Assembly: GCA_010671865.1 (NCBI GenBank)
Contig: GCA_010671865.1_4083.1
Source of the DNA: a phage
Direction: 5' to 3' (one strand)
Length of the DNA: 64,000 bases
This document shows, one piece after another, positions 33,488 through 47,422 of the stretch. The translations under genes and the position numbers were made by a program. Numbering within the stretch: the first letter of the stretch is position 1; every line of letters starts with the position of its first letter. The notes beneath the pieces are model-generated. The model was not told where the DNA came from and did no database searches. It saw nothing but the letters and a program-made list of their open reading frames with translations.

Positions 33488-33495
33488 CTTTTTTG

Positions 33496-33696: not shown

Positions 33697-33699
33697 AAT

Positions 33700-33780: not shown

Positions 33781-33786
33781 TAGTTT

Positions 33787-34044
33787 TTATGAAATATCTT
33801 CGATGTAGTCGGCCCATTTCATTTTTTCAGTACTGTCAATGGCTACCGGATTATTTGGATCAAACCATTCACCATTACCGCAATACATACCAACGGCTAC
33901 GGTTTTATAGCCATCCTGGGCAGTACACCACGACATTGCACGATAGATATGGCCTTTAACTGGTTGCAGTACTGGTAACGTTTTATGGTCTTCTACGTAG
34001 GCCATAGCTTGAGGATTTACCCGATATTGTGTGAACTGTTCCAT
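33787..34044 (-). CDS. hypothetical protein
   Basis: 85-aa ORF; AAGGGG RBS. Confidence 0.55.
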   Translation of the reverse strand: MEQFTQYRVNPQAMAYVEDHKTLPVLQPVKGHIYRAMSWCTAQDGYKTVAVGMYCGNGEWFDPNNPVAIDSTEKMKWADYIEDIS

Positions 34045-34120
34045 TATGTTTCCCCTTGTAGTTAGTAAAGTTATTACATCAGTACTATCAAGCTATGTCA
34101 ATAGTACTGAAATAAAACTT

Positions 34121-34345
34121 TTAGATTAGATTATTGAGGCCGTCAATGGTAGACTCACTTTCTTCTTTCTCCCATTGTCGGTAGTACTTCCATGCTTCAT
34201 GATAGGTGGCGATTAGTTCATCTTTTTGATCCTGGTTACATGCCAGTACTGAATCACGGTGAGCGGTGTTATAGATAGAATCGAATGATTTCTTCTCTTC
34301 TGCCAGGTTAGCTACTTCCCGCATCAGTTCATCAAAGTTAGCCAT
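34121..34345 (-). CDS. hypothetical protein
   Basis: 74-aa ORF; AAGGAG RBS. Confidence 0.55.
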   Translation of the reverse strand: MANFDELMREVANLAEEKKSFDSIYNTAHRDSVLACNQDQKDELIATYHEAWKYYRQWEKEESESTIDGLNNLI

Positions 34346-34422
34346 TTTATTACTCCTTTTAGTGGGGGAGGATATATCCCCCTATGCAAAACATTATACT
34401 TTGTTTTAGTTATTATGCAAGT
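34346..34422 (-). promoter_or_regulatory. promoter plus leader hairpin cassette
   Basis: minus strand TTGCAT-16-TATAAT-GTTTTGCAT, hairpin GGGGGATATATCCTCCCCC; approximate. Confidence 0.5.
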
Positions 34423-34676
34423 ACTTTTTTCATATAAACATTATATTCTACACCGCCGTAACCTTCCACGATGATATGTTTTGCGTTATCACGTTTGCAC
34501 ATAGTGAAACCATCGTTTACGTGTTTTGCATTTTCCAGGGCGACATCACCGATAGCGGCACATACTGAACTAATAACGATATTCCGCAAAGTACTGGTAT
34601 CATTAGCGGTCATAGTAGTTTGCAGTACTACGTTGTCGTATACGTGTGCATTGATAGTGATTTCGATAGTGTTCAT
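34413..34676 (-). CDS. hypothetical protein
   Basis: track ORF 34413..34730 trimmed to MNTIEIT; the upstream MFYIERGKWFPL is a translation of the promoter/hairpin cassette. Confidence 0.55.
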   Translation of the reverse strand: MNTIEITINAHVYDNVVLQTTMTANDTSTLRNIVISSVCAAIGDVALENAKHVNDGFTMCKRDNAKHIIVEGYGGVEYNVYMKKVLA

Positions 34677-34758
34677 GGTGTATCTCCTGGACTTGAGGGG
34701 AAACCATTTCCCCCTCTCGATATAAAACATTATACGTTAATCTAACTACAATGCAAGT
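34677..34758 (-). promoter_or_regulatory. promoter plus leader hairpin cassette
   Basis: TTGCAT-16-TATAAT-GTTTTATATC, hairpin GGGGAAATGGTTTCCCC; approximate. Confidence 0.5.
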
Positions 34759-34763
34759 ACTTT

Positions 34764-34955
34764 TTAAATTTTATTTCCGATATAGTCCGGCCTATTCTTT
34801 TCGGTCATACGCTTTGCTAATGTTTGCATATAGCTTATCGCGTTTAAGGTGTCTTCCTCCAGGGATGAATCAACATAATCAGGATCATTCTTCACCTTGC
34901 AATGATTATGATAGCGTAGTACTGCCAGTACTTTTTTAACTTCTTCAACTGTCAT
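34764..34955 (-). CDS. hypothetical protein
   Basis: 63-aa ORF; ATGA overlap with upstream gene. Confidence 0.5.
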   Translation of the reverse strand: MTVEEVKKVLAVLRYHNHCKVKNDPDYVDSSLEEDTLNAISYMQTLAKRMTEKNRPDYIGNKI

Positions 34956-35224
34956 AATAAGTATTCCACTTCGTTAGCTTTCAGGTTAGTATCAATCATC
35001 AGTGGTTTTTTGTAGTCCACAAAACGATTAGTTTTCTCGATAGCGAAGCCCATATAATCCAGCTTGCTTACAGTACATTCATTCTTAAAAACTTCTTTCG
35101 CGGCATTGATGGCTGATTCAATTGATAACCGACCATCTAAGTTAATGTTACCAAATGATCCACCAGCAGAAGTAGGATTACCGTTCATATCTTTAATAAT
35201 CATAGTAGCGGAGTAGCTGGACAT
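34952..35224 (-). CDS. hypothetical protein
   Basis: 90-aa ORF; AAGGAAAC RBS. Confidence 0.55.
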   Translation of the reverse strand: MSSYSATMIIKDMNGNPTSAGGSFGNINLDGRLSIESAINAAKEVFKNECTVSKLDYMGFAIEKTNRFVDYKKPLMIDTNLKANEVEYLL

Positions 35225-35308
35225 AATTTTGTTTCCTTTTATTGGTGGGGAGAACTATTCTCCCCCTTGATGTAAACTATTATACAGTACTGATATACTT
35301 TGTCAATA
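35225..35308 (-). promoter_or_regulatory. promoter plus leader hairpin cassette
   Basis: TTGACA-16-TATAAT, hairpin GGGGGAGAATAGTTCTCCCCACC; approximate. Confidence 0.5.
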
Positions 35309-35309
35309 C

Positions 35310-35531
35310 TTAATTACGGATAAAGTGATAAAGACCATTATCATCATTAACGCCCCATACTGATTTACCATTTAAACCAGTGAAGCCGGATTGCAATTCA
35401 ATATGGAAACCGTTAGCATCAACGACGAAAACTTTTTTATTTTCATCCCGATAGCATTGATATTCTTCACCTGCTTTAAATGCTGCATCATTCAGAAGAT
35501 TTGAAGCGTGAACGCAGGTCATAGTAGCCAT
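35310..35531 (-). CDS. hypothetical protein
   Basis: track ORF 35310..35588 trimmed to MATMTCVHAS (AAGGAA RBS); upstream part is cassette read-through. Confidence 0.55.
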   Translation of the reverse strand: MATMTCVHASNLLNDAAFKAGEEYQCYRDENKKVFVVDANGFHIELQSGFTGLNGKSVWGVNDDNGLYHFIRN

Positions 35532-35616
35532 CGTCTTGATTCCTTTTAGTACCAGGGGGAACCATTTCCCCCTCTCGATATAAAACATTATACGCTCATT
35601 GAGATAGTTTGCAAGT
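35532..35616 (-). promoter_or_regulatory. promoter plus leader hairpin cassette
   Basis: TTGCAA-17-TATAAT-GTTTTATATC, hairpin GGGGGAAATGGTTCCCCC; approximate. Confidence 0.5.
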
Positions 35617-35717
35617 ACTTTTTATCAAATAGTTTTCAGTACTGAATACTTATATAATAGATACACTTCCGCACCCTATGGGTCAGTGAGTTATCTCTCA
35701 ATGAATATATAATAGCA

Positions 35718-35748
35718 AAGGGACTGACTGGAGTCAATCCCTTTTTTA
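35718..35748 (-). terminator. bidirectional intrinsic terminator (repeated element, copy 2)
   Basis: hairpin AAGGGACTGACTGGAGTCAATCCCTT plus T-run; just downstream of stop of 35756..36340. Confidence 0.55.
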
Positions 35749-35755
35749 ATCTTTT

Positions 35756-36340
35756 TTATCGTGTTATAGTTATCGCGTTAACATCACGTTTTTTATAGTA
35801 CTGATTCCAGATATTGCGGGTTAAACCGTAATCAAGTACTTTAATCAAGCCGTTGCGATCCTGGCCGATATTCTGTTTTCTGATATCTCTTATCGTTAGT
35901 GTGGATAATGTATCATCAACGTGATTGAGAGCATCAGCGAAATGGTGTTGGCGTTCTACCGTATTACGTTTAATATTGTACTTTAACTCATTGCACGCGT
36001 TTACATGCTTTACACTGCCTTTGCTTGCAGTACTCAAACGATCCATAACAATAAACAGATTATCAGGATCGCATAAATGCATATGCACCTTGGCAAAGAA
36101 CTGTTTAAGGTGCGGACGGTCATAATCTAAAAAATTCCATACCTTACATTCAGTTTCATTTTGTTCTACACCCGCATCACAATTCGCGACCTTAATCACT
36201 AACCGATCATTTAAAGCGAATACAATACGGGAAGAACCCGCACCGACGATCTCCAGTCCAGCTAACCGACAAGCTGAAAGGATCTCTTTGTTGGTTTCCA
36301 TTGCATGAAGTGAACGGATGAATTTAGTATAGTTACGCAT
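35756..36340 (-). CDS. putative protein kinase-like protein
   Basis: trimmed to MRNYTKF (AAGGAG RBS); motifs in canonical order: Gly-rich GAGSSRIVF, VIKV, catalytic-loop-like IRDIRKQN, DFG-like LDYG. Confidence 0.4.
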   Translation of the reverse strand: MRNYTKFIRSLHAMETNKEILSACRLAGLEIVGAGSSRIVFALNDRLVIKVANCDAGVEQNETECKVWNFLDYDRPHLKQFFAKVHMHLCDPDNLFIVMDRLSTASKGSVKHVNACNELKYNIKRNTVERQHHFADALNHVDDTLSTLTIRDIRKQNIGQDRNGLIKVLDYGLTRNIWNQYYKKRDVNAITITR

Positions 36341-36371
36341 TGTGTTGACTCCTTGAGTTAATGAAACTATA

Positions 36372-36614
36372 TTACAGTACTTTACTATCAATGGCAACTA
36401 CTTTTTTTACTTGAACTGCGTGGAATACTTCACGCGTATTTTTAGTACTGAATACTTTTGCCGTACCTTGTTCGACCGCAATACGATATCGACCGTTAAC
36501 GTCCACCATGTTGATAAAGTCCGGTGTACTGAATGGAGTTACCCGGCATTTAAGAACGGTTAACAGTTCCACCAGCGTTGTAGTCTCTTTGATACGTTTT
36601 TCTAAAGTAATCAT
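36372..36614 (-). CDS. hypothetical protein
   Basis: track ORF 36372..36671 trimmed to MITLEKR; upstream MTVLKCFSTMYAYQ is promoter read-through. Confidence 0.5.
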   Translation of the reverse strand: MITLEKRIKETTTLVELLTVLKCRVTPFSTPDFINMVDVNGRYRIAVEQGTAKVFSTKNTREVFHAVQVKKVVAIDSKVL

Positions 36615-36671
36615 TTTGTTTTCCCCGTGTTGGTATGCGTACATAGTACTAAAACATTTGAGTACTGTCAA

Positions 36672-36890
36672 TTAGATAATAGAATATTTCTTTAGTGATA
36701 ATGCGTCTTCTGTCGGTTGATATTCTACACCGTTCCCGTTATCAACCTTAGTGAGTAAACCTTTATCAATGAGTTTTTTGATGGTACGGTTTCCCTGTTG
36801 AAAACTGGTGAAGTGTGAATCATTACGAAAGGTATAACCGTGCTTCACTGCTTCATCAATAGTTTTCTTTTCGATTTTAGATAATTTCAT
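36672..36890 (-). CDS. hypothetical protein
   Basis: track ORF 36672..36950 trimmed to MKLSKIEK; same promoter type as 36372..36614. Confidence 0.5.
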   Translation of the reverse strand: MKLSKIEKKTIDEAVKHGYTFRNDSHFTSFQQGNRTIKKLIDKGLLTKVDNGNGVEYQPTEDALSLKKYSII

Positions 36891-36946
36891 TTTGTTTCTC
36901 TCTCTGTGTTGGTATAGATACATAATACTAAAACAATTGAGTACTG

Positions 36947-37201
36947 TCAACGTGATATTAGTTTTATTTTTTTATTGTATTGTTGGTGTTCATATAGATT
37001 AATTTTTCCAGTACTCTCAATTACTATTCTATTGTTAGTGTCTACATCGATAACACGTAGTTTCCCGTTGCTTAACTTCCTGGGTAATAGACTACCATTA
37101 ATAAACTCATTAGCAAGCTGTACGGCCTTTGTGATGATTCTCTGTGGTGCTTTATAGTGTACCCGCAAGATATTATCTTTAGATAGTTGTACCTTCATCA
37201 T
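36947..37201 (-). CDS. hypothetical protein
   Basis: 84-aa ORF. Confidence 0.5.
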   Translation of the reverse strand: MMKVQLSKDNILRVHYKAPQRIITKAVQLANEFINGSLLPRKLSNGKLRVIDVDTNNRIVIESTGKINLYEHQQYNKKIKLISR

Positions 37202-37214
37202 TTTAGTTTATCCT

Positions 37215-37243
37215 ATAAAAAAAGGCGGGAACTGAACCCGCCG
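37215..37243 (-). terminator. intrinsic terminator
   Basis: minus strand GGCGGGTTCAGTTCCCGCC hairpin followed by TTTTTTT; downstream of 37266..37661. Confidence 0.6.
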
Positions 37244-37265
37244 TGTTGTTAGTACTGCAAAGTTT

Positions 37266-37661
37266 TTAGATAACCTGGCGGCGTTTACTGTATACTGTTA
37301 CACGGTTTCCTTTACGGTCATGACGGATCTCTTTCTGGTTACGAATCAGTTCACTTGGACGCTTAAGGTTTGCCAGGTGATCCGCGTGAGTCCATGCATT
37401 TGCGTTAACTGTAACTTCAATATCAGAACCTTTCAAAAAGTCATCTTGAGCGTTCAGTACTTCAGCCAGTTCTTGAGCTTGCTTTAGTTCTGCTTCAGTA
37501 AGTACAGGCTCAGGTGAATTCACAATATCAGAGATCTCTTTGAACTGTACCGCCCAGCGTTGTCCTTTCGGTGCATCTTTGCCCATGTCTTTAAATGTTT
37601 CACCTTCTTCACGAGCAACGATGCGAGCTTGTTCACGGGTAGCGAAGAATTTAGTAATCAT
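37266..37661 (-). CDS. hypothetical protein (paralog of 49170..49436)
   Basis: track ORF trimmed to MITKFFATREQ; shares FATREQARI...FKDMG...DRKGNRVTVY with 49170..49436. Confidence 0.55.
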   Translation of the reverse strand: MITKFFATREQARIVAREEGETFKDMGKDAPKGQRWAVQFKEISDIVNSPEPVLTEAELKQAQELAEVLNAQDDFLKGSDIEVTVNANAWTHADHLANLKRPSELIRNQKEIRHDRKGNRVTVYSKRRQVI

Positions 37662-37760
37662 GGTGTACATCCTATTAGTTAAGTTAATTAGTACTACAAG
37701 TTAGAGTCTATTATAAAGTACTATCTGGGCAATGTCAAATAGTACTTTAAATGGATTCTA

Positions 37761-38084
37761 TTACATGTCTTTTTTACGTTTTACATCGTAGTAACGAACT
37801 GTAATTTCTTTGTTGATCTCATCCTCAATTCTGTGTAGTACTTTCTCTTTCGGGTTGAAACCTATTACAGTTTCTTTAATGATCTCCAAGCCCGTGTATT
37901 CGCCTTGTGTACCGTAACCGTAAGTAAAGGTTTCATGTCCCAGGTCTTCCCAGCGGTCACCAATCAATGCAGACACGTAGCATGAGTGGTAAGTATTGCC
38001 GTGGCTATCAGTCCACCGATTAACTTTAATGTCAAAGGAAGTTACAATTTTCATTTCTACTTTCTGGGCAAGGATCATAGTCAT
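37761..38084 (-). CDS. hypothetical protein (paralog of 43890..44213)
   Basis: 107-aa ORF; shares RWTDSHGNTYHSC...FTYGY...RKKD with 43890..44213. Confidence 0.6.
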   Translation of the reverse strand: MTMILAQKVEMKIVTSFDIKVNRWTDSHGNTYHSCYVSALIGDRWEDLGHETFTYGYGTQGEYTGLEIIKETVIGFNPKEKVLHRIEDEINKEITVRYYDVKRKKDM

Positions 38085-38170
38085 TTTAATTTCTCTCTTT
38101 TTGTTAGGAAGGGAACCATTCCCCTCACTTGATGTAAACTATTATACAGTACTAAGATACTTTGTCAATA
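38085..38170 (-). promoter_or_regulatory. promoter plus leader hairpin cassette
   Basis: TTGACA-16-TATAAT, hairpin GGGGAATGGTTCCC; approximate. Confidence 0.5.
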
Positions 38171-38171
38171 C

Positions 38172-38447
38172 TTAAGTATTGTAAATGTCGTGAATAGTGA
38201 TAAAGTTTTTACGACCGTAAACATGTAAATCAGTATCAATGTAGTGCTTATCAAGTACATCCTCGACGCTTAAAGCCGTGTCGTGAATATCTTCATAGAA
38301 TTGTGGATCTACAATCTTACTTAAATCATCCGGCGTTAACTTATCATTGAGCCATTGCACCGCCTGGATATCTGCATCACGTTTCCAGTCTTCCAGGTTA
38401 GTAGTCAGTACTTGCTCGATTTCGTTAGCTGTCAGTAGAATCCGCAT
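38172..38447 (-). CDS. hypothetical protein
   Basis: 91-aa ORF. Confidence 0.55.
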   Translation of the reverse strand: MRILLTANEIEQVLTTNLEDWKRDADIQAVQWLNDKLTPDDLSKIVDPQFYEDIHDTALSVEDVLDKHYIDTDLHVYGRKNFITIHDIYNT

Positions 38448-38528
38448 TTTAATTTCTCTCTTTGTTAGGTGGGGAACTATTCCCCACTTGATGTAAAATA
38501 TTATACAGTACTAAAAACTATTGTCAAA
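38448..38528 (-). promoter_or_regulatory. promoter plus leader hairpin cassette
   Basis: TTGACA-16-TATAAT, hairpin GTGGGGAATAGTTCCCCAC; approximate. Confidence 0.5.
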
Positions 38529-38536
38529 CTATTTTA

Positions 38537-38737
38537 TCAAATTGTTTCCCATTTCATGTTACCCGCTTTACGCTGTGAAACAGGAATAAACATGTTATTA
38601 ATGTTACTAATATAACCGACCTGTAAGTCACGCTGTGAACCATACGCCCGACTTGCTGCATTTTTAGCACCGCGTTCTGATTTATAAACGCCGCTGGATA
38701 CTGTAAAGCCTACTACACCGAAAGTAAAATGTTTCAT
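38537..38737 (-). CDS. hypothetical protein
   Basis: 66-aa ORF; long leader with tandem promoters. Confidence 0.5.
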   Translation of the reverse strand: MKHFTFGVVGFTVSSGVYKSERGAKNAASRAYGSQRDLQVGYISNINNMFIPVSQRKAGNMKWETI

Positions 38738-39020
38738 TTTGTATTCCTCTTTGTGGTTGATGTAAGTATTATACTCGTTTAATTTCTATTGTCAAACTAT
38801 TTTATCAGGGGAGGTTTTCGTATGTCTTACTCCTGGACTACTTAACGGGGTTACTTATTTCGTTCCCCGTCCTGATGTAAAACATTATACTTGATTCTAA
38901 GTACAATGCAAGTACTTTTTAAAAATAGTTTTCAGTACTTGATAGTACTAGCCACCAGCAAACAATAGATACATTTATGCACCCTGTGGGCTGATTTGTT
39001 TCTATGCGTATATAATAGCA

Positions 39021-39049
39021 AAGGGACTGACCGGAGTCAATCCCTTTTT
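39021..39049 (-). terminator. bidirectional intrinsic terminator (repeated element, copy 3)
   Basis: hairpin AAGGGACTGACCGGAGTCAATCCCTT plus T-run. Confidence 0.55.
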
Positions 39050-39058
39050 CAATTATTT

Positions 39059-39208
39059 TTAAACTTGTTTCGGGTTGCGATAGGTGATAGCGTTCGGGTA
39101 CATTTGTTTAATGTTATTCCATGCCTGGTTAACATTGTAACCACTTGAGCGAATCAGTTGGTTACTACCGACACCTTGAAACACTACTTCGAATAAGAAT
39201 TCTTTCAT
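39059..39208 (-). CDS. hypothetical small protein (49 aa)
   Basis: hand-translated MKEFLFEVVFQGVGSNQLIRSSGYNVNQAWNNIKQMYPNAITYRNPKQV; GAGGTG RBS; approximate. Confidence 0.4.
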   Translation of the reverse strand: MKEFLFEVVFQGVGSNQLIRSSGYNVNQAWNNIKQMYPNAITYRNPKQV

Positions 39209-39378
39209 GCTTTCACCTCGCTATCTGCTTTACCTTTACGCCAGGACATTACTAATTGTTCGCGTTGCCATAAGTCGAGTGATACAAAAAGTTTTGCGGT
39301 ATCACTTTTAGGATACTCGCCAGTAGTACCTAACCGATAAAACAGATCTTTCAGTACTGATAATTCTACTTGAATCAT
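39205..39378 (-). CDS. hypothetical small protein (57 aa)
   Basis: hand-translated MIQVELSVLKDLFYRLGTTGEYPKSDTAKLFVSLDLWQREQLVMSWRKGKADSEVKA; AGGAG RBS; ATGA overlap downstream; approximate. Confidence 0.4.
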   Translation of the reverse strand: MIQVELSVLKDLFYRLGTTGEYPKSDTAKLFVSLDLWQREQLVMSWRKGKADSEVKA

Positions 39379-39467
39379 TTTATTACTCCTGATTGCGTTA
39401 ATACTTCTACTATTGCATGAATGATCATAAGTACAGCTAAAACAATAATCATCGGATTCATTTGCAT
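39375..39467 (-). CDS. hypothetical small hydrophobic peptide (~30 aa)
   Basis: rough hand translation MQMNPMIIVLAVLMIIHAIVEVLTQSGVIK; AGGAG RBS; coordinates and sequence approximate. Confidence 0.3.
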   Translation of the reverse strand: MQMNPMIIVLAVLMIIHAIVEVLTQSGVIK

Positions 39468-39484
39468 AAGCTGTACTCCTTATA

Positions 39485-39697
39485 TTAATCTTTCAGCCAA
39501 TGATCCTGAATGAATTTTTCGCCGGAACCTTGCTGCATTGATTGTAACAGACGTTCACGATGAGCGGCGGCGAATTGCTCAGTACTATGCGTTACGCCAG
39601 GCTGATAACGTGATACCCCATCCGGTCCGATGTATTGTACATCCCACGGTTTTTCGTTAGTATCAGACCATTTACGAACGATTAGTTGACCTTGCAT
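39485..39697 (-). CDS. hypothetical protein
   Basis: 70-aa ORF; GAGGAAAG RBS. Confidence 0.55.
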   Translation of the reverse strand: MQGQLIVRKWSDTNEKPWDVQYIGPDGVSRYQPGVTHSTEQFAAAHRERLLQSMQQGSGEKFIQDHWLKD

Positions 39698-39775
39698 TTT
39701 TCTTTCCTCTCAGTGGGGAGAATCATTTCTCCCCTTCATGTAACTTATTATACAGTACTAGATTATCTTGTCAAT
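39698..39775 (-). promoter_or_regulatory. promoter plus leader hairpin cassette
   Basis: TTGACA-16-TATAAT, hairpin GGGGAGAAATGATTCTCCCC; approximate. Confidence 0.5.
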
Positions 39776-39780
39776 AGTTT

Positions 39781-40104
39781 TTATTCACCTTGTTTGAATT
39801 TAGTTTTCTCCATTGATTCCATGATTGCAACCAATACGCTGTGGATCTCGCTTAACGCGGAATCACTGAAAGCATTAATGAATAGTCGATCATTCTCGCG
39901 AATATTTTTAATGTACTTTTCAGCAGTAGTTGCGAATTCATTCAACGGTAGATCAAATGCTTTATCCCATGATGGATGGCGTAATTGTAACAGTACTGGA
40001 TTATCACGATCACCAGGGGAAAACGTACCAGTGATGAAACATACGCCCGGAATACTTTCGAACTGGCAACGGACTTCCTTTGTGATAGTAGTATGAATGT
40101 ACAT
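39781..40104 (-). CDS. hypothetical protein
   Basis: 107-aa ORF; GAGGA RBS. Confidence 0.55.
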   Translation of the reverse strand: MYIHTTITKEVRCQFESIPGVCFITGTFSPGDRDNPVLLQLRHPSWDKAFDLPLNEFATTAEKYIKNIRENDRLFINAFSDSALSEIHSVLVAIMESMEKTKFKQGE

Positions 40105-40131
40105 TTATTGTTATCCTCTATTAAATTAATA

Positions 40132-40326
40132 TTACAGTTTATGAATCAATTCTTTATCTAAGCGATAGCGTACATTATTAATAGTAACGGCATTGTTTTT
40201 AATGCTACGCTGTACAGGTCCACCAGCAATAACAAATGTTGCTTTATTACCCCGAACAATGATAGCACTTCCAGGATTACCGAAATCATCTTGTACTAAA
40301 ATACTTGATAAGTTTTCCATTTTCAT
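40132..40326 (-). CDS. hypothetical protein
   Basis: 64-aa ORF; true start may be the second Met (MENLSS) by RBS spacing. Confidence 0.5.
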   Translation of the reverse strand: MKMENLSSILVQDDFGNPGSAIIVRGNKATFVIAGGPVQRSIKNNAVTINNVRYRLDKELIHKL

Positions 40327-40401
40327 TTCCTCTTAGTAGGGGAAGATGTTTCCCCTTGATGTAAGTACTATAACACTACTGGATAGTACTGTCAATACTT
40401 T

Positions 40402-40659
40402 TTATCTCATAGATCTATGCCAACAATTACGCGGGGGACGTTTAAAAGTACTATCATGATCCTCCTGGCAAGTTATGCAGTACTTACATCCCTTAACAGC
40501 CCGGCGGCGATTCTCAGGGATTTTATCGCCACAGTCGAGGCAATGTATCAGTGATTCTATTTGTGCGTTAATTTGCTTTCTAGCGTGGTTTACGGCGGCC
40601 TGAATCACTGCGTTAATCTCGTCTTGTTCGGCCCCGTCTTTCGCGAATCCTACAGCCAT
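40402..40659 (-). CDS. DksA/TraR-family C4 zinc-finger protein
   Basis: 85-aa ORF with C-x2-C-x17-C-x2-C and hallmark CLDCGDKIPENRRRAVKG...CITCQ. Confidence 0.6.
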   Translation of the reverse strand: MAVGFAKDGAEQDEINAVIQAAVNHARKQINAQIESLIHCLDCGDKIPENRRRAVKGCKYCITCQEDHDSTFKRPPRNCWHRSMR

Positions 40660-40856
40660 TATTTTAACCTTTTTCTATCATTAATTAATGCTTTCAGTAC
40701 TATACTAATAACTTGCAATGATTCATCAATGACTATAAAATTATTTTCTTTCATTAGATGATAGTTACCATTGATATTATATTCTAACGAGTACTGTTTA
40801 CGTTTAATTTTTGATAATGTTTCTATTTGTTTTTGTACTGATTTCATGCTAATCAT
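40659..40856 (-). CDS. hypothetical protein
   Basis: 65-aa ORF; 1-nt stop/start overlap with 40402..40659. Confidence 0.5.
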   Translation of the reverse strand: MISMKSVQKQIETLSKIKRKQYSLEYNINGNYHLMKENNFIVIDESLQVISIVLKALINDRKRLK

Positions 40857-40961
40857 TGTTAAACGTCCTGTAACGCATTCTAACGAGATAAACGGTTTAG
40901 TACTGGCATTGTATAGGGTAATGAATTAAAGCCCACCAGCGTTAACCAGTGGGCTATAATC

Positions 40962-41105
40962 TTACATCTTGCGGATAATCTTAACAGTATCTTTCACCGA
41001 TTTACCGTTTTGCTGACATTGTTCGATCATCGCGTATTGTTCTGCGGTCAGATCCTCGCCAGTTTTTGCCAGTACTGCATCGATGAATGAATCTAGTGCG
41101 ATCAT
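40962..41105 (-). CDS. hypothetical small protein (~47 aa)
   Basis: rough hand translation MIALDSFIDAVLAKTGEDLTAEQYAMIEQCQQNGKSVKDTVKIIRKM; approximate. Confidence 0.3.
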   Translation of the reverse strand: MIALDSFIDAVLAKTGEDLTAEQYAMIEQCQQNGKSVKDTVKIIRKM

Positions 41106-41204
41106 TTTGTTTCTCTCTTAGGTTAAGTTAACTACTGTTTATAAAACTTATTATACAGTACTATCAAACTATGTCAATATCTTTAATAGTACTGGTAATA
41201 TATT

Positions 41205-41447
41205 TTAGCGGTAGTCGTCGTATGCTTTATTCACCTGTCGAATGTAACTTTCAAAGGCTTCGTCTACCGTTTCATACTCCCGAACATAATCACCATAGGA
41301 AACTACATACATCCCTTTTTGATCTTCAAACGTCATGATGATAGAATCCAGGCCGATGATTTCAGTTTTTGCGATGATAGCCATTTTTAATTCCTTAGTA
41401 GTGTAGTTGATAAAACTTATTATGCCAGTACTATCAATCTTTGTCAA
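41205..41447 (-). CDS. hypothetical protein
   Basis: 80-aa ORF; promoter TTGACA-17-CATAAT without hairpin. Confidence 0.55.
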   Translation of the reverse strand: MTKIDSTGIISFINYTTKELKMAIIAKTEIIGLDSIIMTFEDQKGMYVVSYGDYVREYETVDEAFESYIRQVNKAYDDYR

Positions 41448-41466
41448 TAGTACTGTGATAATATTT

Positions 41467-41679
41467 TTAGTTAATGATAGTCAGTGTAAAATTGTAATCC
41501 CCTGCCTGGTATAGTACTTTGTCGCCGAACGTACCAACACGTTTCATATTGCAATAGATACCCATAACACTTTTTACATCTTTGATATTCCGAACGCCAG
41601 TGATATCCTTGTTGAAATTTTCATGATCAGAAAATAAAACTTGTTTTGCATTTTTCAGTACAGTGCAGATATTAGCCAT
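41467..41679 (-). CDS. hypothetical protein
   Basis: 70-aa ORF. Confidence 0.55.
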   Translation of the reverse strand: MANICTVLKNAKQVLFSDHENFNKDITGVRNIKDVKSVMGIYCNMKRVGTFGDKVLYQAGDYNFTLTIIN

Positions 41680-41762
41680 TTTGTTTTCTCTTTGTTAGTG
41701 GGGAGAATCATTTCTCCCCTTCATGTAACTTATTATACAGTACTATAATCTATTGTCAAACT
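41680..41762 (-). promoter_or_regulatory. promoter plus leader hairpin cassette
   Basis: TTGACA-16-TATAAT, hairpin GGGGAGAAATGATTCTCCCC; approximate. Confidence 0.5.
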
Positions 41763-41773
41763 ATTTTTTAATA

Positions 41774-42115
41774 TTATTCAAAATCTTCTGGACCGGACTG
41801 ATAATCATCTTCACCGTATGCACTTTCTAACTTCTCGCCAGTGTGATCATCAGTTAGTGAGTCATCCTCATAGTTCACGTCTACGCCTACAATGTAAAAC
41901 TGGCTATCGTCTGGATCATTGAAATTAATTTTCTGAATGTTTACAATAACGGTATTGATGCCCAGGACACCGCCATCAGCAGTTACAAAGTACTGATAGT
42001 TTTCACAACCGCCTGAATTGAAACCGTAATTAATTTCGGCCCGACCATCATTTAAACGCAGTACCTGGGCGATGATTTCGTTTTCAAAGTTAGATTGAGC
42101 AATTGAGATAGTCAT
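41774..42115 (-). CDS. hypothetical protein (acidic C-terminus)
   Basis: 113-aa ORF; C-terminal DDHTGEKLESAYGEDDYQSGPEDFE. Confidence 0.55.
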   Translation of the reverse strand: MTISIAQSNFENEIIAQVLRLNDGRAEINYGFNSGGCENYQYFVTADGGVLGINTVIVNIQKINFNDPDDSQFYIVGVDVNYEDDSLTDDHTGEKLESAYGEDDYQSGPEDFE

Positions 42116-42200
42116 GATTCGTTTCCTTATTACCAGGGGAAACCATTTCCCCTTGCGATGTAAAACATTATACGCTTATTGAGATAGTTTGCAAGTACTT
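42116..42200 (-). promoter_or_regulatory. promoter plus leader hairpin cassette
   Basis: TTGCAA-16-TATAAT-GTTTTACATC, hairpin GGGGAAATGGTTTCCCC, then TGGTAATAAGGAAAC RBS; approximate. Confidence 0.5.
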
Positions 42201-42296
42201 TTTAAAAATAGTTTTCAGTACTCAATACTTATATAATAGATACACTTATGCACCCTGTGGGCTAGTGAGCTATCTCTCAATGAATATATAATAGCA

Positions 42297-42327
42297 AAAT
42301 GGCTGACCGGAGTCAACCACTTTTTTT
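42297..42327 (-). terminator. bidirectional intrinsic terminator (repeated element, copy 4, with compensatory stem changes)
   Basis: hairpin TGGCTGAC-CGGA-GTCAACCA plus T-run; stem differs from copies 1-3 by paired substitutions. Confidence 0.55.
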
Positions 42328-42464
42328 CATTTATTTTTAGCTTTTAGAATCGCCGCCTTTCGTGTCATTCCTTGTTTGATGTACTCCTTTACTTTCGCTT
42401 TACGTGCTTTCGCTTTATCTGCTTTCGTTTTAGGAGTACTGTAAATTATACCGTTAGGATTCAT
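42327..42464 (-). CDS. hypothetical small lysine-rich basic protein (45 aa)
   Basis: hand-translated codon by codon: MNPNGIIYSTPKTKADKAKARKAKVKEYIKQGMTRKAAILKAKNK; approximate coordinates. Confidence 0.4.
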   Translation of the reverse strand: MNPNGIIYSTPKTKADKAKARKAKVKEYIKQGMTRKAAILKAKNK

Positions 42465-42554
42465 TTAAATCACCATAAAGAATAGATAGGTTACTAACAA
42501 TGCCGCGATCAATGCACCGACCAGGGCCGAACTGTAATAAGCCAATGATTTCAT
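42465..42554 (-). CDS. hypothetical small hydrophobic peptide (~29 aa)
   Basis: rough hand translation MKSLAYYSSALVGALIAALLVTYLFFMVI; ATGA overlap with upstream ORF; approximate. Confidence 0.3.
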   Translation of the reverse strand: MKSLAYYSSALVGALIAALLVTYLFFMVI

Positions 42555-42703
42555 TTTTTAGCCTGAAAATAGTGTTTAATTTGAGCGGCGGTCAGTGCAC
42601 AATTACGCAGGAAGTTTTCTGTATAACTGCGTCGAGTACTGAAAGAAAATTGACCTTTGCCGTTACCGATAGTAACATCAAACCGAGCATTATATTGTTT
42701 CAT
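42551..42703 (-). CDS. hypothetical small protein (~50 aa)
   Basis: rough hand translation MKQYNARFDVTIGNGKGQFSF...; AGGAG RBS; approximate. Confidence 0.35.
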   Translation of the reverse strand: MKQYNARFDVTIGNGKGQFSFSTRRSYTENFLRNCALTAAQIKHYFQAKK

Positions 42704-42817
42704 TTTGTTTCTCCTGATAGTGGGGAGTACTATTTCTCCCCTTCATGTAAAACATTATACAGTACTGAAAACTAATTGCAAGTATTATTTTTTAGATTTA
42801 CGCAAACTTTCTACCAT

Positions 42818-42931
42818 CTCAGGAGTAAGGCCCGGCGGGTAGGAAACCACTTCATCAACGAAACGTAAAGGGAATACCCCAGCGAAAGGTGAACATGCTT
42901 TCTTAGTATTACTCTTTTTTGATGCTTTCAT
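42818..42931 (-). CDS. hypothetical small protein (~37 aa)
   Basis: hand-translated MKASKKSNTKKACSPFAGVFPLRFVDEVVSLPAGPYS; AAGGAA RBS; own promoter/hairpin; approximate. Confidence 0.3.
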
Positions 42932-43000
42932 TTCATATTCCTTAATTAGTGGGGAGTACTATTTCTCCCCTTCATGTAAAACATTATACAGTACTGAAAA

Positions 43001-43210
43001 CTAATTGCAAGTACTATTTGAAAGTAAATGCTCATACGCTGCATTAACTACATTTTCAATAACCGACTGTACAGAAAGATCCCCCACGTCCTGGCTATAG
43101 TAGAAATTGCTTACAGTGGTGTCATCGTATGCAAATACTTTACCAGGTACGGCATCAATCACATACATATTAACCTTTAAGATGTCGATCTTATCCTGTA
43201 CAGTAAGCAT
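43001..43210 (-). CDS. hypothetical protein
   Basis: 69-aa ORF. Confidence 0.55.
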   Translation of the reverse strand: MLTVQDKIDILKVNMYVIDAVPGKVFAYDDTTVSNFYYSQDVGDLSVQSVIENVVNAAYEHLLSNSTCN

Positions 43211-43215
43211 ATTAA

Positions 43216-43488
43216 TTAACCTTTTAAGTACTGGCTTAAGTAGTCTTTTTGTTCTTCGGTGATTGCAGTCATCTTCCCTAGTACTGGATTGATGATATAA
43301 TCCCCTGTAACGTCCTGTACTGCGTTTTCAGGCTGTTTAACGGCAGGGGTAGCCATAGCCATAGCCTGGACTTGTTCCACACTGTAACGCTCATAAAGGC
43401 GGCATTCTTCCGGTGTTAACATAGCATCAGTACGCTTCATCGGTTTAATGATGCTTTCGATCTCATTCAGTACTTGATTAACGTTCAT
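43216..43488 (-). CDS. hypothetical protein
   Basis: 90-aa ORF. Confidence 0.55.
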   Translation of the reverse strand: MNVNQVLNEIESIIKPMKRTDAMLTPEECRLYERYSVEQVQAMAMATPAVKQPENAVQDVTGDYIINPVLGKMTAITEEQKDYLSQYLKG

Positions 43489-43539
43489 GGTATAATCCCC
43501 AATATAAGCGGCCTAAATCGACCGCTAACGATGTTTTGA

Positions 43540-43809
43540 TTAATAGGTGTATGGTTGACGCTCAAACAATGATTGTACGCTGTACGCCCCGCTAATGGGC
43601 TTCGCTGGTAAATCAATTTTATATTGCTCACGCTTAAAGATAATAAAACGGCAATTGTTTTTAACATCAAAATTGATTGAACGTTCCAGGAGTTTACCAT
43701 CGTGAACAAATACAAGATAACCACTTGGTACTTGTTTTGTAGTACTGGTTGCAACCATAGACCGACGAACATGTGTACCTGCATCGATTAAAGTACTGAT
43801 ATTTTTCAT
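43540..43809 (-). CDS. hypothetical protein
   Basis: 89-aa ORF; preferred over overlapping alternative frame 43485..43784. Confidence 0.5.
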   Translation of the reverse strand: MKNISTLIDAGTHVRRSMVATSTTKQVPSGYLVFVHDGKLLERSINFDVKNNCRFIIFKREQYKIDLPAKPISGAYSVQSLFERQPYTY

Positions 43810-43889
43810 TTTACTTTCCTCTTAAGTTGATTTAATTTCTTTCCCCTATGCAGACACTATATCAAAGTATCTGCATAAAGTAAAGCTAA

Positions 43890-44213
43890 TTAAAGATCTT
43901 TTTTGCGTTTAACATTCTGTACAGTACAATGCAACGGGATATTAAGATCATTGCACAAACGATAGAGGGAGGTTTCAACAGTATCAAGCCCGTCTACTGA
44001 TTCCTTTAAGAGTGATACCGCCGTTTGTTGATATGCATCCTCATAGCCATAAGTAAATGATTCAACCGCCAGATCATTCAAGCCGTTATCCAGTTCAACG
44101 CTTACATGACAAGAATGATAAGTATTGCCATATGAATCAGTCCAACGTTTACCGTCAACATTGATTGCATGGATTGCAGCCAGGGAAACGGTGTTGATGA
44201 TAGTTTTAGCCAT
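43890..44213 (-). CDS. hypothetical protein (paralog of 37761..38084)
   Basis: 107-aa ORF; shares RWTDSYGNTYHSC...FTYGY...KRKKDL. Confidence 0.6.
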   Translation of the reverse strand: MAKTIINTVSLAAIHAINVDGKRWTDSYGNTYHSCHVSVELDNGLNDLAVESFTYGYEDAYQQTAVSLLKESVDGLDTVETSLYRLCNDLNIPLHCTVQNVKRKKDL

Positions 44214-44299
44214 TTTAGTATTCCTTAAATTAATATGTGTCGTCTTGATAAAATCTATTATGCCAGTACTATCAAACTATGTCAATAGTACTGTGATAA

Positions 44300-44448
44300 T
44301 ATTTTTTACTTACTTTTTGCTTTCTTTGCTGCTTCCACCTGGTCGGCCCATTCTTTACCCCATACTTGTAAATTATAATGGTACTGGCAAAGTGCAACGC
44401 CCCGCTTTAAACCCGTAATAGATTTCTGACCACATTGACAAGTTTTCA
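44300..44448 (-). CDS. hypothetical small Cys-containing protein (~47 aa)
   Basis: rough hand translation MKTCQCGQKSITGLKRGVALCQYHYNLQVWGKEWADQVEAAKKAKSK; approximate. Confidence 0.3.
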
Positions 44449-44534
44449 TATTAGTTTCCTTGTAGTGGGGAGAATCATTTCTCCCCTTGATGTAATGTAT
44501 TATACTTTATTCGATTTACTTTGCAAGTACTTTT

Positions 44535-44762
44535 TTAATTTAATTCATCCAGGCAAAGGATACGTTCCACACCAAGATCCGTTAAACTAATGGTCGGTAC
44601 TTGATAGGTTTCAATGTATGCTACACTTGCCCACTGACCGAACTCATTAACGGCCCAGGTATTCATTGCATTTTGCAATTCCACACCTTCCTTGTTGGTA
44701 ATGACTGCAACTACTTGTTCGTTGCCAGTAGTACCAGATACGCGAGTAATGATAATAGCCAT
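44535..44762 (-). CDS. hypothetical protein
   Basis: 75-aa ORF; promoter TTGACA-17-CATAAT. Confidence 0.55.
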   Translation of the reverse strand: MAIIITRVSGTTGNEQVVAVITNKEGVELQNAMNTWAVNEFGQWASVAYIETYQVPTISLTDLGVERILCLDELN

Positions 44763-44837
44763 TTTTTAATTCCTATTCAGTAGTTGATGTATGTATTATG
44801 TCAGTACTTAAAACTATTGTCAAACTATTTTTTAAAG

Positions 44838-44985
44838 TTTATCAATGATTGATGCCGTTTCATTGATAGTCTTGCCGTGTTTTGCACACGCGATAACTGC
44901 TTTAAATTCCTTTGATGACCAATCTTTCTTGCTGCATACTGACATTACTTGTAAAGTAAAACAATCCAGTTCATAAGTATTCATC
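44838..44985 (-). CDS. hypothetical small protein (~49 aa)
   Basis: rough hand translation MNTYELDCFTLQVMSVCSKKDWSSKEFKAVIACAKHGKTINETASIIDKL; approximate. Confidence 0.3.
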
Positions 44986-45209
44986 TTTAAATCCTCAGTT
45001 AGTTAAGGTGTCTCGCCTTGATGTAATTAATTATACGCTAATCTCTTAATCGTGCAAGTACTTTTTATTACTTTTTGCAAAATACTTTAAACGCTCTCAA
45101 TCGCATTCTAACGGCCTTCACGCCACCAGCTAGGGCAATGCATCAGATAATCAGTTTAATGCGTTAGAATCGATTCTATCGGGTGCTAGTGGACTGGTAA
45201 ACGATAGAT

Positions 45210-45238
45210 ACAAAAAAGCCCACTGTTTAAGGTGGGCT
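45210..45238 (-). terminator. intrinsic terminator
   Basis: minus strand AGCCCACCTTAAACAGTGGGCT hairpin followed by TTTTTTG; downstream of 45260..45742. Confidence 0.6.
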
Positions 45239-45259
45239 AGTGATTCAGTACTTTAATTG

Positions 45260-45742
45260 TTATGCTTCAACTTTGCGATGAGCTTCGATCCATTCCTCGC
45301 GAGTCATACCGCTTTCTTTGATAGCGTCCAGTACTACCGCAATGCAGTTACCGCGTACAGGAATCATATGTTCTTCCCCGTTATCAAGTACTACAGTAAC
45401 ACGTTCTTGAATCCATTTTTTAGGTTTAGATTCTGGCTTATCTTCACCATACTTAACCGCCAGGGCTTTATGTGCCATTTCTACAACTACTTCCAGATCC
45501 AATCCAGACACCGCCGCCTGGATACTTTCGATTGTTGCTTGTAGTTCTGCTTCACGGGCTTTTTTCTGTTCTTCCAGTTCTGCTACCTTTTTGGCTTGCA
45601 GTTCTTTAGCTTCACTGTACGCAATGTTAAAATTGTTGCGTACTGCTTTCATGGTATCGTTATCCAGGTCAGCCAACAATTCAGCAGCAATAACAGTATC
45701 GTTTGAAATCAGTGCTTTCAGGAATGATTTTACATTAGCCAT
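45260..45742 (-). CDS. hypothetical protein with predicted coiled-coil segment
   Basis: track ORF trimmed to MANVKSF (GAGGA RBS); heptad-like KELQAKKVAELEEQKKAREAELQATIESIQAA. Confidence 0.55.
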   Translation of the reverse strand: MANVKSFLKALISNDTVIAAELLADLDNDTMKAVRNNFNIAYSEAKELQAKKVAELEEQKKAREAELQATIESIQAAVSGLDLEVVVEMAHKALAVKYGEDKPESKPKKWIQERVTVVLDNGEEHMIPVRGNCIAVVLDAIKESGMTREEWIEAHRKVEA

Positions 45743-45939
45743 TTTATAAATCCTCAATTAAAGTTTAGTTTACGTTTATTAGTGTATCAAAGTTTTATCG
45801 ACGTGTCCAGTTTTTCGTTCGACTTACTGGCGGTCTACTTAGTGCTCCCCGTCTTGATGTAATACATTCTACGCCTTTTTGTGGTAATGTCAACTACTAT
45901 TTTAAAACTATTTTTAAAGTATGCAGTACTACGATACTA

Positions 45940-45973
45940 CAAAAACAAAAAAGCCCACTGTTTAAGGTGGGCT
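45940..45973 (-). terminator. intrinsic terminator (same hairpin sequence as 45210..45238)
   Basis: identical AGCCCACtgtttaaGGTGGGCT hairpin with A/T runs; downstream of 45991..46290. Confidence 0.6.
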
Positions 45974-45990
45974 AGTGATTCAGTACTATA

Positions 45991-46290
45991 TTATAAACAG
46001 TTAATTACTCCGGTGTGCGTTACTTTCTCAGTATCCATAACAGTGACCGAACCGCGTTTAGTACTTGCATCGTAATAAATTGTCGTGCTACCTTTTTCGT
46101 CTTCTTCATGGAACGGCCCGTTTTTAAATGCTTCTGGCTGGATCTCTAAATCCTTTAAAACAATCTCGCCAGTACTTTCATTGGTCATCGCTACAGTGCA
46201 CTGAATGAATTTTTCACTACTTACATCTAACGACGCATTAACAGCGAAAGAGGAAACAGATAAAGCCAGGGCGATGATTGCAACTTTCAT
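45991..46290 (-). CDS. hypothetical secreted/periplasmic protein
   Basis: 99-aa ORF; N-terminal signal-peptide-like MKVAIIALALSVSSFAVNA with A-x-A cleavage context. Confidence 0.5.
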   Translation of the reverse strand: MKVAIIALALSVSSFAVNASLDVSSEKFIQCTVAMTNESTGEIVLKDLEIQPEAFKNGPFHEEDEKGSTTIYYDASTKRGSVTVMDTEKVTHTGVINCL

Positions 46291-46375
46291 TAGTATATCC
46301 TTAGTTACCAGGGGGGAACCGCTCCCCCTTGCGATGTAAAATATTGTACAGTACTAAAAACTAATTGCAAGTACT
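46291..46375 (-). promoter_or_regulatory. promoter plus leader hairpin cassette
   Basis: TTGCAA-16-TGTACAATAT, hairpin GGGGGAGCGGTTCCCCCC then TGGTAACTAAGGA RBS; approximate. Confidence 0.45.
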
Positions 46376-46612
46376 TTATGATTTTTTATAAAACATTTCG
46401 GCAGTGATATTTTTACCCGTTGGTTGTACTTTATCCAGAATTTTTTGATGCCCTGGCCGTCCAAATGAATATGATCCGTAAACCGTAAACCAGTAGTTAC
46501 CCTCAGTGTTTACATGTACAGCACAATAGGGAACGCCCCGCGATTCATCACTAGTAAAGTGTGCTACCGTTCCCGTTACATTCGAAGACGTTGATTTGAT
46601 TTGTTCGACCAT
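46376..46612 (-). CDS. hypothetical protein
   Basis: 78-aa ORF. Confidence 0.55.
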   Translation of the reverse strand: MVEQIKSTSSNVTGTVAHFTSDESRGVPYCAVHVNTEGNYWFTVYGSYSFGRPGHQKILDKVQPTGKNITAEMFYKKS

Positions 46613-46720
46613 TTTCTTATTCCTTAGTTACCAGGGGAACCGCTCCCCCTATGCAAAACATTATACGCGTTTAAAAACTAATTGCAAGTATTTTAATAAA
46701 AAGTATTTGAAAAATAATTG

Positions 46721-46749
46721 TTGACAAGTGCATCCAGTACTGGCATAAT
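46721..46749 (+). promoter_or_regulatory. candidate plus-strand promoter (antisense or small-RNA transcript)
   Basis: TTGACA-17 nt-CATAAT on plus strand in a minus-strand gene region; a palindromic hairpin lies ~80 nt downstream. Confidence 0.4.
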
Positions 46750-46819
46750 TACTACATCAAGACGAAACAGTCACTAACCCACCGGGTGCCGAGATCCGTC
46801 TATTAAATGATTCAGTACT

Positions 46820-46848
46820 GAAAAAAGAAAGGGGATCAATTGATCCCC
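46820..46848. terminator. bidirectional terminator (perfect palindrome)
   Basis: GGGGATCAATTGATCCCC flanked by A-run and T-rich run; downstream of minus gene 46855..47076. Confidence 0.55.
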
Positions 46849-46854
46849 TCGTTG

Positions 46855-47076
46855 TTATTTTGTAAGGTATAAACAGAAGTCACCTTTATTTGCTACGCCG
46901 CCAGTGTAACGCGAGGAATAGTTAGAAACGTCCTGGACTTCTGCTATTACCAGGGTATCATCATTCAATTCGTCGCAGAAGCAAACGGCTGGATCTTGTA
47001 CGCCGATTTTGTCGGCATGTTCCCGCATAGATTTAACCAGTGCTTCCAGTTGGGAAAGAGTAGTGATATTAGCCAT
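46855..47076 (-). CDS. hypothetical protein
   Basis: track ORF trimmed to MANITTL (GAGGAAA RBS). Confidence 0.55.
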   Translation of the reverse strand: MANITTLSQLEALVKSMREHADKIGVQDPAVCFCDELNDDTLVIAEVQDVSNYSSRYTGGVANKGDFCLYLTK

Positions 47077-47160
47077 TTTATTTTCCTCATTACCAGGGAG
47101 AACCATTTCTCCCTTGATGTAAACTATTATACAGTACTGAAAACTAATTGCAAGTACTTT
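47077..47160 (-). promoter_or_regulatory. promoter plus leader hairpin cassette
   Basis: TTGCAA-16-TATAAT, hairpin GGGAGAAATGGTTCTCCC then TGGTAATGAGGAAA RBS; approximate. Confidence 0.5.
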
Positions 47161-47161
47161 T

Positions 47162-47422
47162 TCAATATTGTTTGTCGTCGTCTTCCTCGATGAATTGACC
47201 GACGAAATGATCTACTTTCGCTTTGAGGCTTTTATAATCTTCTTCTACTTCCGTTAAACGTTCCTGGTAGTATTCCAGTGCCTCAAGATACGCCGCCTCA
47301 GCAGTTTTTGCACGCATAGCTAAATTCATTCCACGCGTTTCATCAAATAGCCAATAACCATCGGTGCAATGACTGATAGATAATGACTTGCTTAGTACTG
47401 TATAGTTAATTACTTTACTCAT
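47162..47422 (-). CDS. hypothetical protein
   Basis: track ORF trimmed to MSKVINY; upstream part reads through the leader hairpin. Confidence 0.5.
   Translation of the reverse strand: MSKVINYTVLSKSLSISHCTDGYWLFDETRGMNLAMRAKTAEAAYLEALEYYQERLTEVEEDYKSLKAKVDHFVGQFIEEDDDKQY

Follow-up and report, generated by a model that had tools for sequence, protein, structure and literature searches.

The minus-strand gene at 40402..40659 of the window (the whole 64,000-nt stretch of phage DNA analysed here) raises the question of whether a protein of 85 aa, encoded among ORFans, can act on the host RNA polymerase (RNAP), and which member of the TraR/DksA family it would resemble in doing so.

The gene and its family

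The ORF starts with the ATG at 40659, ends with the TAA at 40402-40404 (the stop codon being within the coordinates) and comprises 85 codons. Its full product is MAVGFAKDGAEQDEINAVIQAAVNHARKQINAQIESLIHCLDCGDKIPENRRRAVKGCKYCITCQEDHDSTFKRPPRNCWHRSMR, which contains CLDCGDKIPENRRRAVKGCKYCITCQ. According to the ORF list and the translation, the coordinates and the protein string quoted in the preliminary description are both exact; the strand, which was absent from it, is minus. The start codon is confirmed by the N-terminus of the family, which aligns from residue 1, and the ORF list, Pfam, PHROG and dN/dS results identify a CDS for a YbiI-like zinc-finger protein of the TraR/DksA family.

Between the window and phage ph0011 the gene shows 11 synonymous differences and one non-synonymous difference (dN/dS 0.02), and full-length homologues of the protein are present in hundreds of phage records. 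In the comparison with T4-like homologues, codons 1-12 carry no non-synonymous changes even though the synonymous sites are saturated. Likewise, the last nine codons specify an unchanged protein despite synonymous substitutions, including the replacement of the Ser codon TCT by AGC. Because synonymous changes are present inside both termini, the constraint on them acts at the level of the protein and not of the nucleic acid; the same changes rule out a DNA or RNA constraint on the C-terminal tail RNCWHRSMR. The locus is a genuine gene under strong purifying selection. In addition, a six-frame translation of the window contains the C-x2-C-x17-C-x2-C pattern a single time, and its mean in 300 composition-matched simulated windows was 0.033 per window, with at least one occurrence in 10 of the 300; the longer CxxCGxxIPxxRR pattern appeared in none of them. 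No second C4 zinc-finger gene or paralogue was found elsewhere in the window.

The preliminary description had taken the product for a DksA/TraR-type protein, and Pfam, PHROG 54, NCBIfam, solved structures, profile-profile comparison and fold all agree on this point. In the HMM search that it proposed, residues 39-68 matched Pfam PF01258 (zf-dskA_traR) at 45.5 bits (E = 7.3e-12), well past the curated gathering score of 24.9 bits. PHROG 54, 'DksA-like zinc-finger protein', was matched with E = 6.7e-19. Among NCBIfam models the best was the YbiI-type NF008243 (PRK11019) with 82.1 bits, a score under its equivalog cut-off of 96 bits; the TraR and DksA equivalogs scored far lower, the DksA equivalog NF033459 giving 16.6 bits against a cut-off of 105 bits. 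A sequence search of solved structures placed Escherichia coli YbiI (2KGO) first with E = 2.7e-12, while F-plasmid TraR (5W1S/6N57) was matched at approximately 5e-6. Meanwhile, hhalign of a 52-homologue profile against a TraR-family profile returned a probability of 98.9%, pairing residues 18-73 with TraR residues 15-70.

The AlphaFold2 model, of moderate confidence (mean pLDDT 70.7, below 50 at residues 1-6 and 80-82), consists of a helix at residues 6-29 (40573..40644, minus strand), zinc knuckles with the finger at residues 40-64, a second helix at residues 62-71 and a low-confidence tail. The TraR-type architecture, i.e. an N-terminal helix, a zinc globule and a C-terminal helix within ~70-90 aa, is present in the model. 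In Foldseek comparisons the model matched the RNAP-bound TraR chain 6N57_M with a TM score of 0.68 and 2.5 Å over 66 columns, and its N-terminal helix superposes on that of TraR. Generally, the model groups with YbiI and RNAP-bound TraR, and DksA chains are matched weakly (E ~0.2-0.5). DksA proper is marked by ~150 aa, a two-helix coiled coil, residues that bind ppGpp and an equivalog score, whereas the phage protein has 85 aa and one helix. It belongs to the TraR/DksA family, within the YbiI-like subfamily rather than with TraR proper. PADLOC defence models and anti-defence models gave no match for it.

The phage origin of the gene, also claimed in the preliminary description, is borne out by the 95-97% identity of the window to Asteriusvirus genomes; the surrounding 3.5 kb are identical to the same extent to Asteriusvirus jumbo coliphages (PBECO4, ph0011, BF17, G17, SD-2_S15 and others). 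Orthologues in ph0011, BF17, JP4, WPEC3 and other phages have already been annotated, under the labels 'DksA C4-type domain-containing protein', 'DksA-like zinc-finger protein' and 'TraR/DksA C4-type zinc finger protein'. Since near-identical orthologues carry such labels, the identity of the gene is already known at the annotation level, and our finding confirms the existing database annotation. In the literature, we found no paper treating a DksA-like gene in the Asteriusvirus/PBECO4 group or in jumbo phages. The 'TraR/DksA' label of CDS711 of WPEC3 is a mislabel, this 70-aa protein having two cysteines only and no C4 finger motif; the CDS (L006 36274-36486, in the second copy of the terminal repeat) is the homologue of window 41467-41679, and its label has apparently been misplaced.

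The phage clade of the gene is carried by Asteriusvirus and by several T4-like Straboviridae genera, in which it sits in the tk-rI hyperplastic region. In the T4-like phages Ursula (L003 1527-1910) and UP19 (L004 1597-1980), an ORF labelled 'starvation-inducible transcriptional regulator' (PHROG 858) adjoins rI, and two to three genes further downstream comes the zinc-finger gene. Two putative stringent- or starvation-related regulators would thus be close together in these two phages.

Zinc finger, tip motif and termini

The C4 zinc finger, C40-x2-C43-x17-C61-x2-C64, is encoded at 40468..40542 (minus strand). The C-x2-C-x17-C-x2-C pattern with the CGxxIPxxRR hallmark was correctly recognised in the preliminary description, and the ligands C40, C43, C61 and C64 are invariant in an alignment of 52 homologues; C58 is an additional cysteine that is not conserved. 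Also invariant in the 52 homologues are I47, P48, R51 and R52, which correspond to TraR I44, P45, R48 and R49, and E49, the equivalent of TraR E46, is nearly so (at least 90%). At the position of TraR K50 the window protein has R53 and most relatives have Q. In TraR, P45, E46 and R48 contact the beta-prime rim helices and R49 contacts beta-prime Si3 (PMC9239242, PMC6970531). The globular-domain contact set of TraR-type regulators is found in the window protein as P48, E49, R51 and R52. The C-terminal helix is predicted to have 10 residues (62-71) and aligns to TraR 59-68, although it is short and differs in sequence; it is followed by a proline-containing linker and then by a tail of nine residues.

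At the other end of the protein, the YbiI-like alignment and the spacing to the finger point to codons D8-G9-A10 (40630..40638, minus strand) as a probable tip half-motif, which is probably the counterpart of TraR D6-x-A8 and DksA D74-x-A76. D74 and A76 of DksA are functionally critical tip residues (PMC4010833). The first Asp of the DxxDxA motif is replaced by F5 in the window protein and by F or W across the YbiI-like subfamily. Among 89 intact YbiI-like representatives, none has the full DxxDxA, while 75 have D at position 8 and 62 have D.A at positions 8-10. The distance from this D to the first Cys is 31 in 61 of the 75 representatives, as it is in TraR (D6-C37) and in VP882 Orf61, an experimentally validated TraR homologue (PMC9239242); the window protein has a spacing of 32 and the P2-like PSP3 homologue one of 29. 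The first 17 residues were aligned by neither phmmer nor hhalign, and with the ungapped hhalign register (offset 3) carried on toward the N-terminus, D8/A10 fall one residue out of phase with TraR D6/A8.

A subfamily scan of 1.84 billion representative proteins gave 2,539 relatives at E <= 1e-3 and one representative at E <= 1e-30. Because only this one representative was recovered at the stricter threshold, the phage clade forms a single 50%-identity cluster. The YbiI-like group as a whole is characterised by the N-terminus MAxG[WF]AxDGAVQ[DE]QID, an IPxxRR finger and the tail [YF]NRRGSKDSQLR, and the MAxG[WFY] start is found in 80 of the 89 representatives. With MAVGFAKDGA, the window protein conforms to the N-terminal signature MAxG[WF]AxDGA, and its clade retains the YbiI-like N-terminus (MAVGFAKDGAEQ); at the C-terminus, however, it has the invariant RNCWHRSMR instead of the YbiI-like tail.

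This tail, R77-N-C-W-H-R-S-M-R85 (40405..40431, minus strand), is specific to the phage clade in the homologue alignment and is without a TraR counterpart. Intermediate tails exist (NRKVWHRSMR in P0181, with others in P0204 and P0217), which suggests that RNCWHRSMR arose by divergence as a homologue of the bacterial NRRGSKDSQLR tail and is not a new module. Slopekvirus phages have a bacterial-type tail. A frameshift between the two tails was ruled out on reading the other frames, and the intermediates point to ordinary divergence. The tail was also considered as a separate module (phrog_25948, with the PhAPEC2 match H65), but the locus concerned is a decayed 3' gene remnant fused to another ORF. 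In PhAPEC2 (Mosigvirus; L002 1390-1580), the zinc-finger gene remnant reads ...VIYCVGCQSMHDEIFKREPRN and is then frameshifted and joined to the N-terminus of an unrelated ORF, and PHROG 25948 represents this chimera.

Transcription unit and terminal-repeat block

Directly upstream of the zinc-finger gene, the ORF list contains a 65-aa ORFan (phrog_36844; 40659..40856, minus strand), annotated likewise in ph0011. The stop codon of this ORF (TAA) and the zinc-finger ATG overlap as TAATG, and because of this overlap the two genes are probably co-transcribed and translationally coupled. The order upstream of the zinc-finger gene is a promoter (41177-41150), a 47-aa ORF, a hairpin and the 65-aa ORF. 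The promoter, TTGACA-16-TATAAT (41150..41177, minus strand), matches the sigma-70 consensus at 12 of 12 positions, is the nearest upstream one in the promoter scan and probably gives rise to the transcript that extends into the zinc-finger gene. The sequence immediately before the two-gene unit yielded no promoter, and for this reason its timing would depend on read-through from the 41177 promoter. The hairpin, read from the sequence as AGCCCAC-N12-GTGGGCT followed by TTAATTCATT (40930..40955, minus strand), lies between the 47-aa ORF, the first of the unit, and the 65-aa ORF and is possibly an attenuator. It was not scored as a terminator in the terminator scan, and the same stem recurs in terminator-like sites at 45973 and 45238.

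On the other side of the gene, a cassette composed of TTGACA-17-TATAGT and an AGGGGAA/TTCCCCT hairpin (40332..40395, minus strand) starts 7 nt past the zinc-finger stop; this PeSL-like cassette would drive the next gene (40326..40132) and mark the 3' boundary of the unit. Cassettes of this kind are repeated in the window. They are ~73 nt long and consist of TTGACA or TTGCAA, a spacer of 16-17 nt, TATAAT and an A+T-rich discriminator, with a GGGG...CCCC stem-loop preceding the RBS; further examples on the minus strand are 41759-41696, 39774-39711 and 42781-42718. In their make-up they appear to fit the PeSL elements described in T4-type phages (PMC2839356, PMC4122927). PeSL elements are thought to mediate cassette shuffling of ORFans. 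In ph0011 (L001 6323-6679) and WPEC3 (8838-9194), a 118-aa N-acetyltransferase-like ORF lies directly downstream of the zinc-finger gene; the window is without it at ~40,327-40,401, where the next gene is a 64-aa ORFan (40132-40326), and its presence or absence amounts to a cassette indel at the PeSL-like element. The idea of a conserved upstream partner gene did not hold: Ursula, UP19 and phiKp_11 each have a different ORF upstream, with no relationship among the three or to the ORF of the window, and in WPEC3 an extra ORF is inserted between the two genes. An Rfam search and a tRNA scan of the window found nothing.

On a larger scale, the minus strand has 32 near-consensus sigma-70 promoters at 23.5-51.5 kb, with 29 concentrated in 33.8-51.5 kb, and only two are on the plus strand; most of those on the minus strand have A+T-rich discriminators, and most belong to the ~73-nt cassettes. 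Window 31,996-51,903 is colinear (89-97% identity) with a block of 22,503 bp of which the Escherichia phage WPEC3 record (PV611058.1) has two 100% identical copies, one at each end. Judged by this colinearity, the segment can be taken as the homologue of a long direct terminal repeat, and it coincides with the promoter-dense, putatively early region. The WPEC3 zinc-finger gene is inside the terminal repeat, 9.3 kb from the end, and a second copy of it in WPEC3 is the terminal repeat and not a paralogue. The neighbours of the zinc-finger gene are all ORFans. From this context we infer early expression by the host sigma-70 RNA polymerase. The early terminal-repeat location and the YbiI-type termini are only mildly new points.

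Other features of the window concern different genes. Six ORFs of 376-433 aa follow one another at 56,639-63,916 (plus strand) and are all paralogous to each other (15 of 15 pairs with E < 1e-5, 24-38% identity); this tandem family is on the strand opposite to the rest of the window, and all three members scanned against Pfam (56639-57835, 60136-61437 and 62729-63916) contain RCC1-like beta-propeller repeats. An unbroken run of 34 ORFs of 137-224 aa, whose stop and start codons often overlap, occupies 367-23,080 (minus strand); the five ORFs tested gave no Pfam match, and BLASTP resolved the run into paralogue groups of 8 and 3 only, the others being singletons. A 213-aa ORF at 35,756-36,397 (minus strand) has weak protein-kinase matches of 18.6 and 17.3 bits, below the Pfam gathering scores. 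Its ph0011 orthologue is annotated as 'protein kinase domain-containing protein', and the ORF is possibly an early host-modifying kinase.

Proposed function and comparison with known systems

The reading that we favour, with a confidence a little above even, is that the protein acts as a TraR-like, ppGpp-independent secondary-channel factor of RNAP, which would depress unstable host promoters and spare the consensus promoters of the phage. According to this proposal, the small YbiI-like protein would be made early in Asteriusvirus infection and would bind the host RNA polymerase without DNA binding. The N-terminal helix 6-29 would reach into the secondary channel and bring the D8-G9-A10 tip close to the active site, P48, E49, R51 and R52 would seat the zinc globule on the beta-prime rim helices and Si3, and the short C-terminal helix 62-71 would extend toward the beta lobe and Si1. 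Open complexes at short-lived host promoters (those of rRNA and ribosomal-protein genes) would then be destabilised independently of ppGpp, in the manner of TraR and lambda Orf73, while the phage early promoters, with their consensus -35/-10 hexamers and A+T-rich discriminators, would be spared, and the net result would be a shift of polymerase and resources to the phage. We infer the binding to RNAP, the direction of the effect and the promoter selectivity, set beside the family, fold, contact residues, selection and early-region context described above. A redirection of host transcription, as the preliminary description suggested, would be reasonable, with the caveats that of the DxxDxA tip only D-x-A is kept and that the protein is of the YbiI type. 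All five phage TraR homologues that have been tested bind RNAP and inhibit rRNA promoters, and the authors emphasise that a C4 protein of the DksA/TraR type need not work like DksA (PMC9239242). As for YbiI, its high expression rescues the auxotrophy of a dksA deletion ('data not shown'), and the authors who tested it favoured an iron-related role (PMC2613031). Further points that speak against the proposal are the Phe in place of the first Asp of DxxDxA, the one-residue shift of D8/A10 in the extended register, the short C-terminal helix with its linker and tail, the moderate confidence of the model and the dependence of the timing on read-through.

If the proposed function is right, a ~20-kb ORFan block of a 350-kb phage would have in this gene one of its few host-takeover genes that can be assigned. 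Moreover, TraR-type, ppGpp-independent reprogramming of RNAP, a paradigm of plasmids and temperate phages, would then also apply to virulent jumbo and T4-like phages. Mutagenesis would have a cheap and well-defined target in the YbiI-type termini, which could also clarify the role of E. coli YbiI.

An incomplete DxxDxA throughout the subfamily, together with the retention of the TraR-like fold and the rim-helix contacts, would also suit a protein that occupies the channel without TraR-like activity. Such an occupant would exclude DksA (with ppGpp site 2), GreA and GreB and have no effect of its own on open-complex kinetics, so that the host stringent response would be blunted and rRNA and tRNA synthesis kept running for the phage; competition between secondary-channel factors is established, for example with Rnk (PMC9239242). 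However, conserved residues of the subfamily probably correspond to D74 and A76, which are critical in DksA (PMC4010833), YbiI was reported to rescue and not to mimic a dksA deletion (PMC2613031), and 12 N-terminal residues fully constrained at the protein level are unexpected for an inert plug. We consider this alternative to the TraR-like factor unlikely.

Similarly unlikely, in our estimate, is that the phage clade with its invariant MAVGFAKDGAEQ and RNCWHRSMR forms a functionally distinct immediate-early host-takeover factor whose output differs from that of TraR. The tail and the aromatic, non-acidic first tip residue might give such a different regulatory output; for example, the access of DksA or Gre factors could be blocked, a partner recruited or a different surface of RNAP used. 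If this were true, virulent phages would have a mode of exploiting the secondary channel that has yet to be described.

Conservation is higher at the two termini than in the core, neither terminus aligns to TraR, and the RNCWHRSMR or YbiI-type tail is a hallmark of the subfamily. A YbiI-type function that is not centred on initiation by RNAP could be read from this. Either MAVGFAKDGAEQ and RNCWHRSMR would attach to some other target or to a partner protein of the phage, with the zinc finger as a scaffold, or the protein would act only within a complex, as VP882 TraR does with QisA (bioRxiv 10.64898/2026.07.27.740977). The probable translational coupling to the small upstream ORF and the iron-related role thought more likely by the YbiI authors (PMC2613031) are in line with this. 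Nevertheless, the equivalents of the RNAP-contact residues of TraR are invariant, none of the upstream ORFs compared above is a conserved partner gene, and the defence and anti-defence models were not matched; we rate this explanation as less probable than either of the preceding two. Finally, a spurious ORF, or a pseudogene in decay, with an accidental cysteine pattern, which the very short frame in an ORFan region and the decayed remnant in PhAPEC2 might bring to mind, has practically no likelihood and is refuted by the conservation data, given profile matches far over threshold (Pfam, PHROG and NCBIfam), the low dN/dS, the abundance of full-length phage homologues and a cysteine motif not expected by chance in the simulations.

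Among known systems, the best match of the TraR/DksA-family protein in both sequence and fold is E. coli YbiI (2KGO), with 36-38% identity and 88 aa against 85 aa. The two proteins share the MAxG[FW]AxDGA start, the IPxxRR-containing C4 finger and, past the TraR-type helix, a basic C-terminal extension that is conserved. Unlike YbiI, the phage protein scores under the equivalog cut-off (82.1 versus 96 bits), has E and not V at position 11 and ends in RNCWHRSMR, whereas the YbiI-type tail is NRRGSKDSQLR; its gene lies in the putative early region of a virulent phage, whereas that of YbiI is at a chromosomal iron-related locus. With DksA, it has in common the zinc-finger domain and probably the D-x-A tip (DksA D74 and A76; PMC4010833), but it is about half the size, has one helix in place of a coiled coil and is devoid of a ppGpp-binding region. 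The phage protein and F-plasmid TraR (5W1S, 6N57) are members of the same Pfam family and share the three-element architecture, the P45/E46/R48/R49 equivalents and probably the tip D-x-A, and both are carried by mobile elements of gammaproteobacteria. In contrast to TraR and the tested phage homologues, with which its identity is 26-29%, the phage protein has Phe in place of the first Asp of DxxDxA; compared with TraR, it has two more residues at the N-terminus and nine more at the C-terminus. The tested homologues (lambda Orf73, VP882 Orf61, P2 Orf82 and VHML Orf8) come from lysis-lysogeny regions of temperate phages or from plasmids, whereas the window gene belongs to a virulent jumbo phage and has its relatives in T4-like phages.
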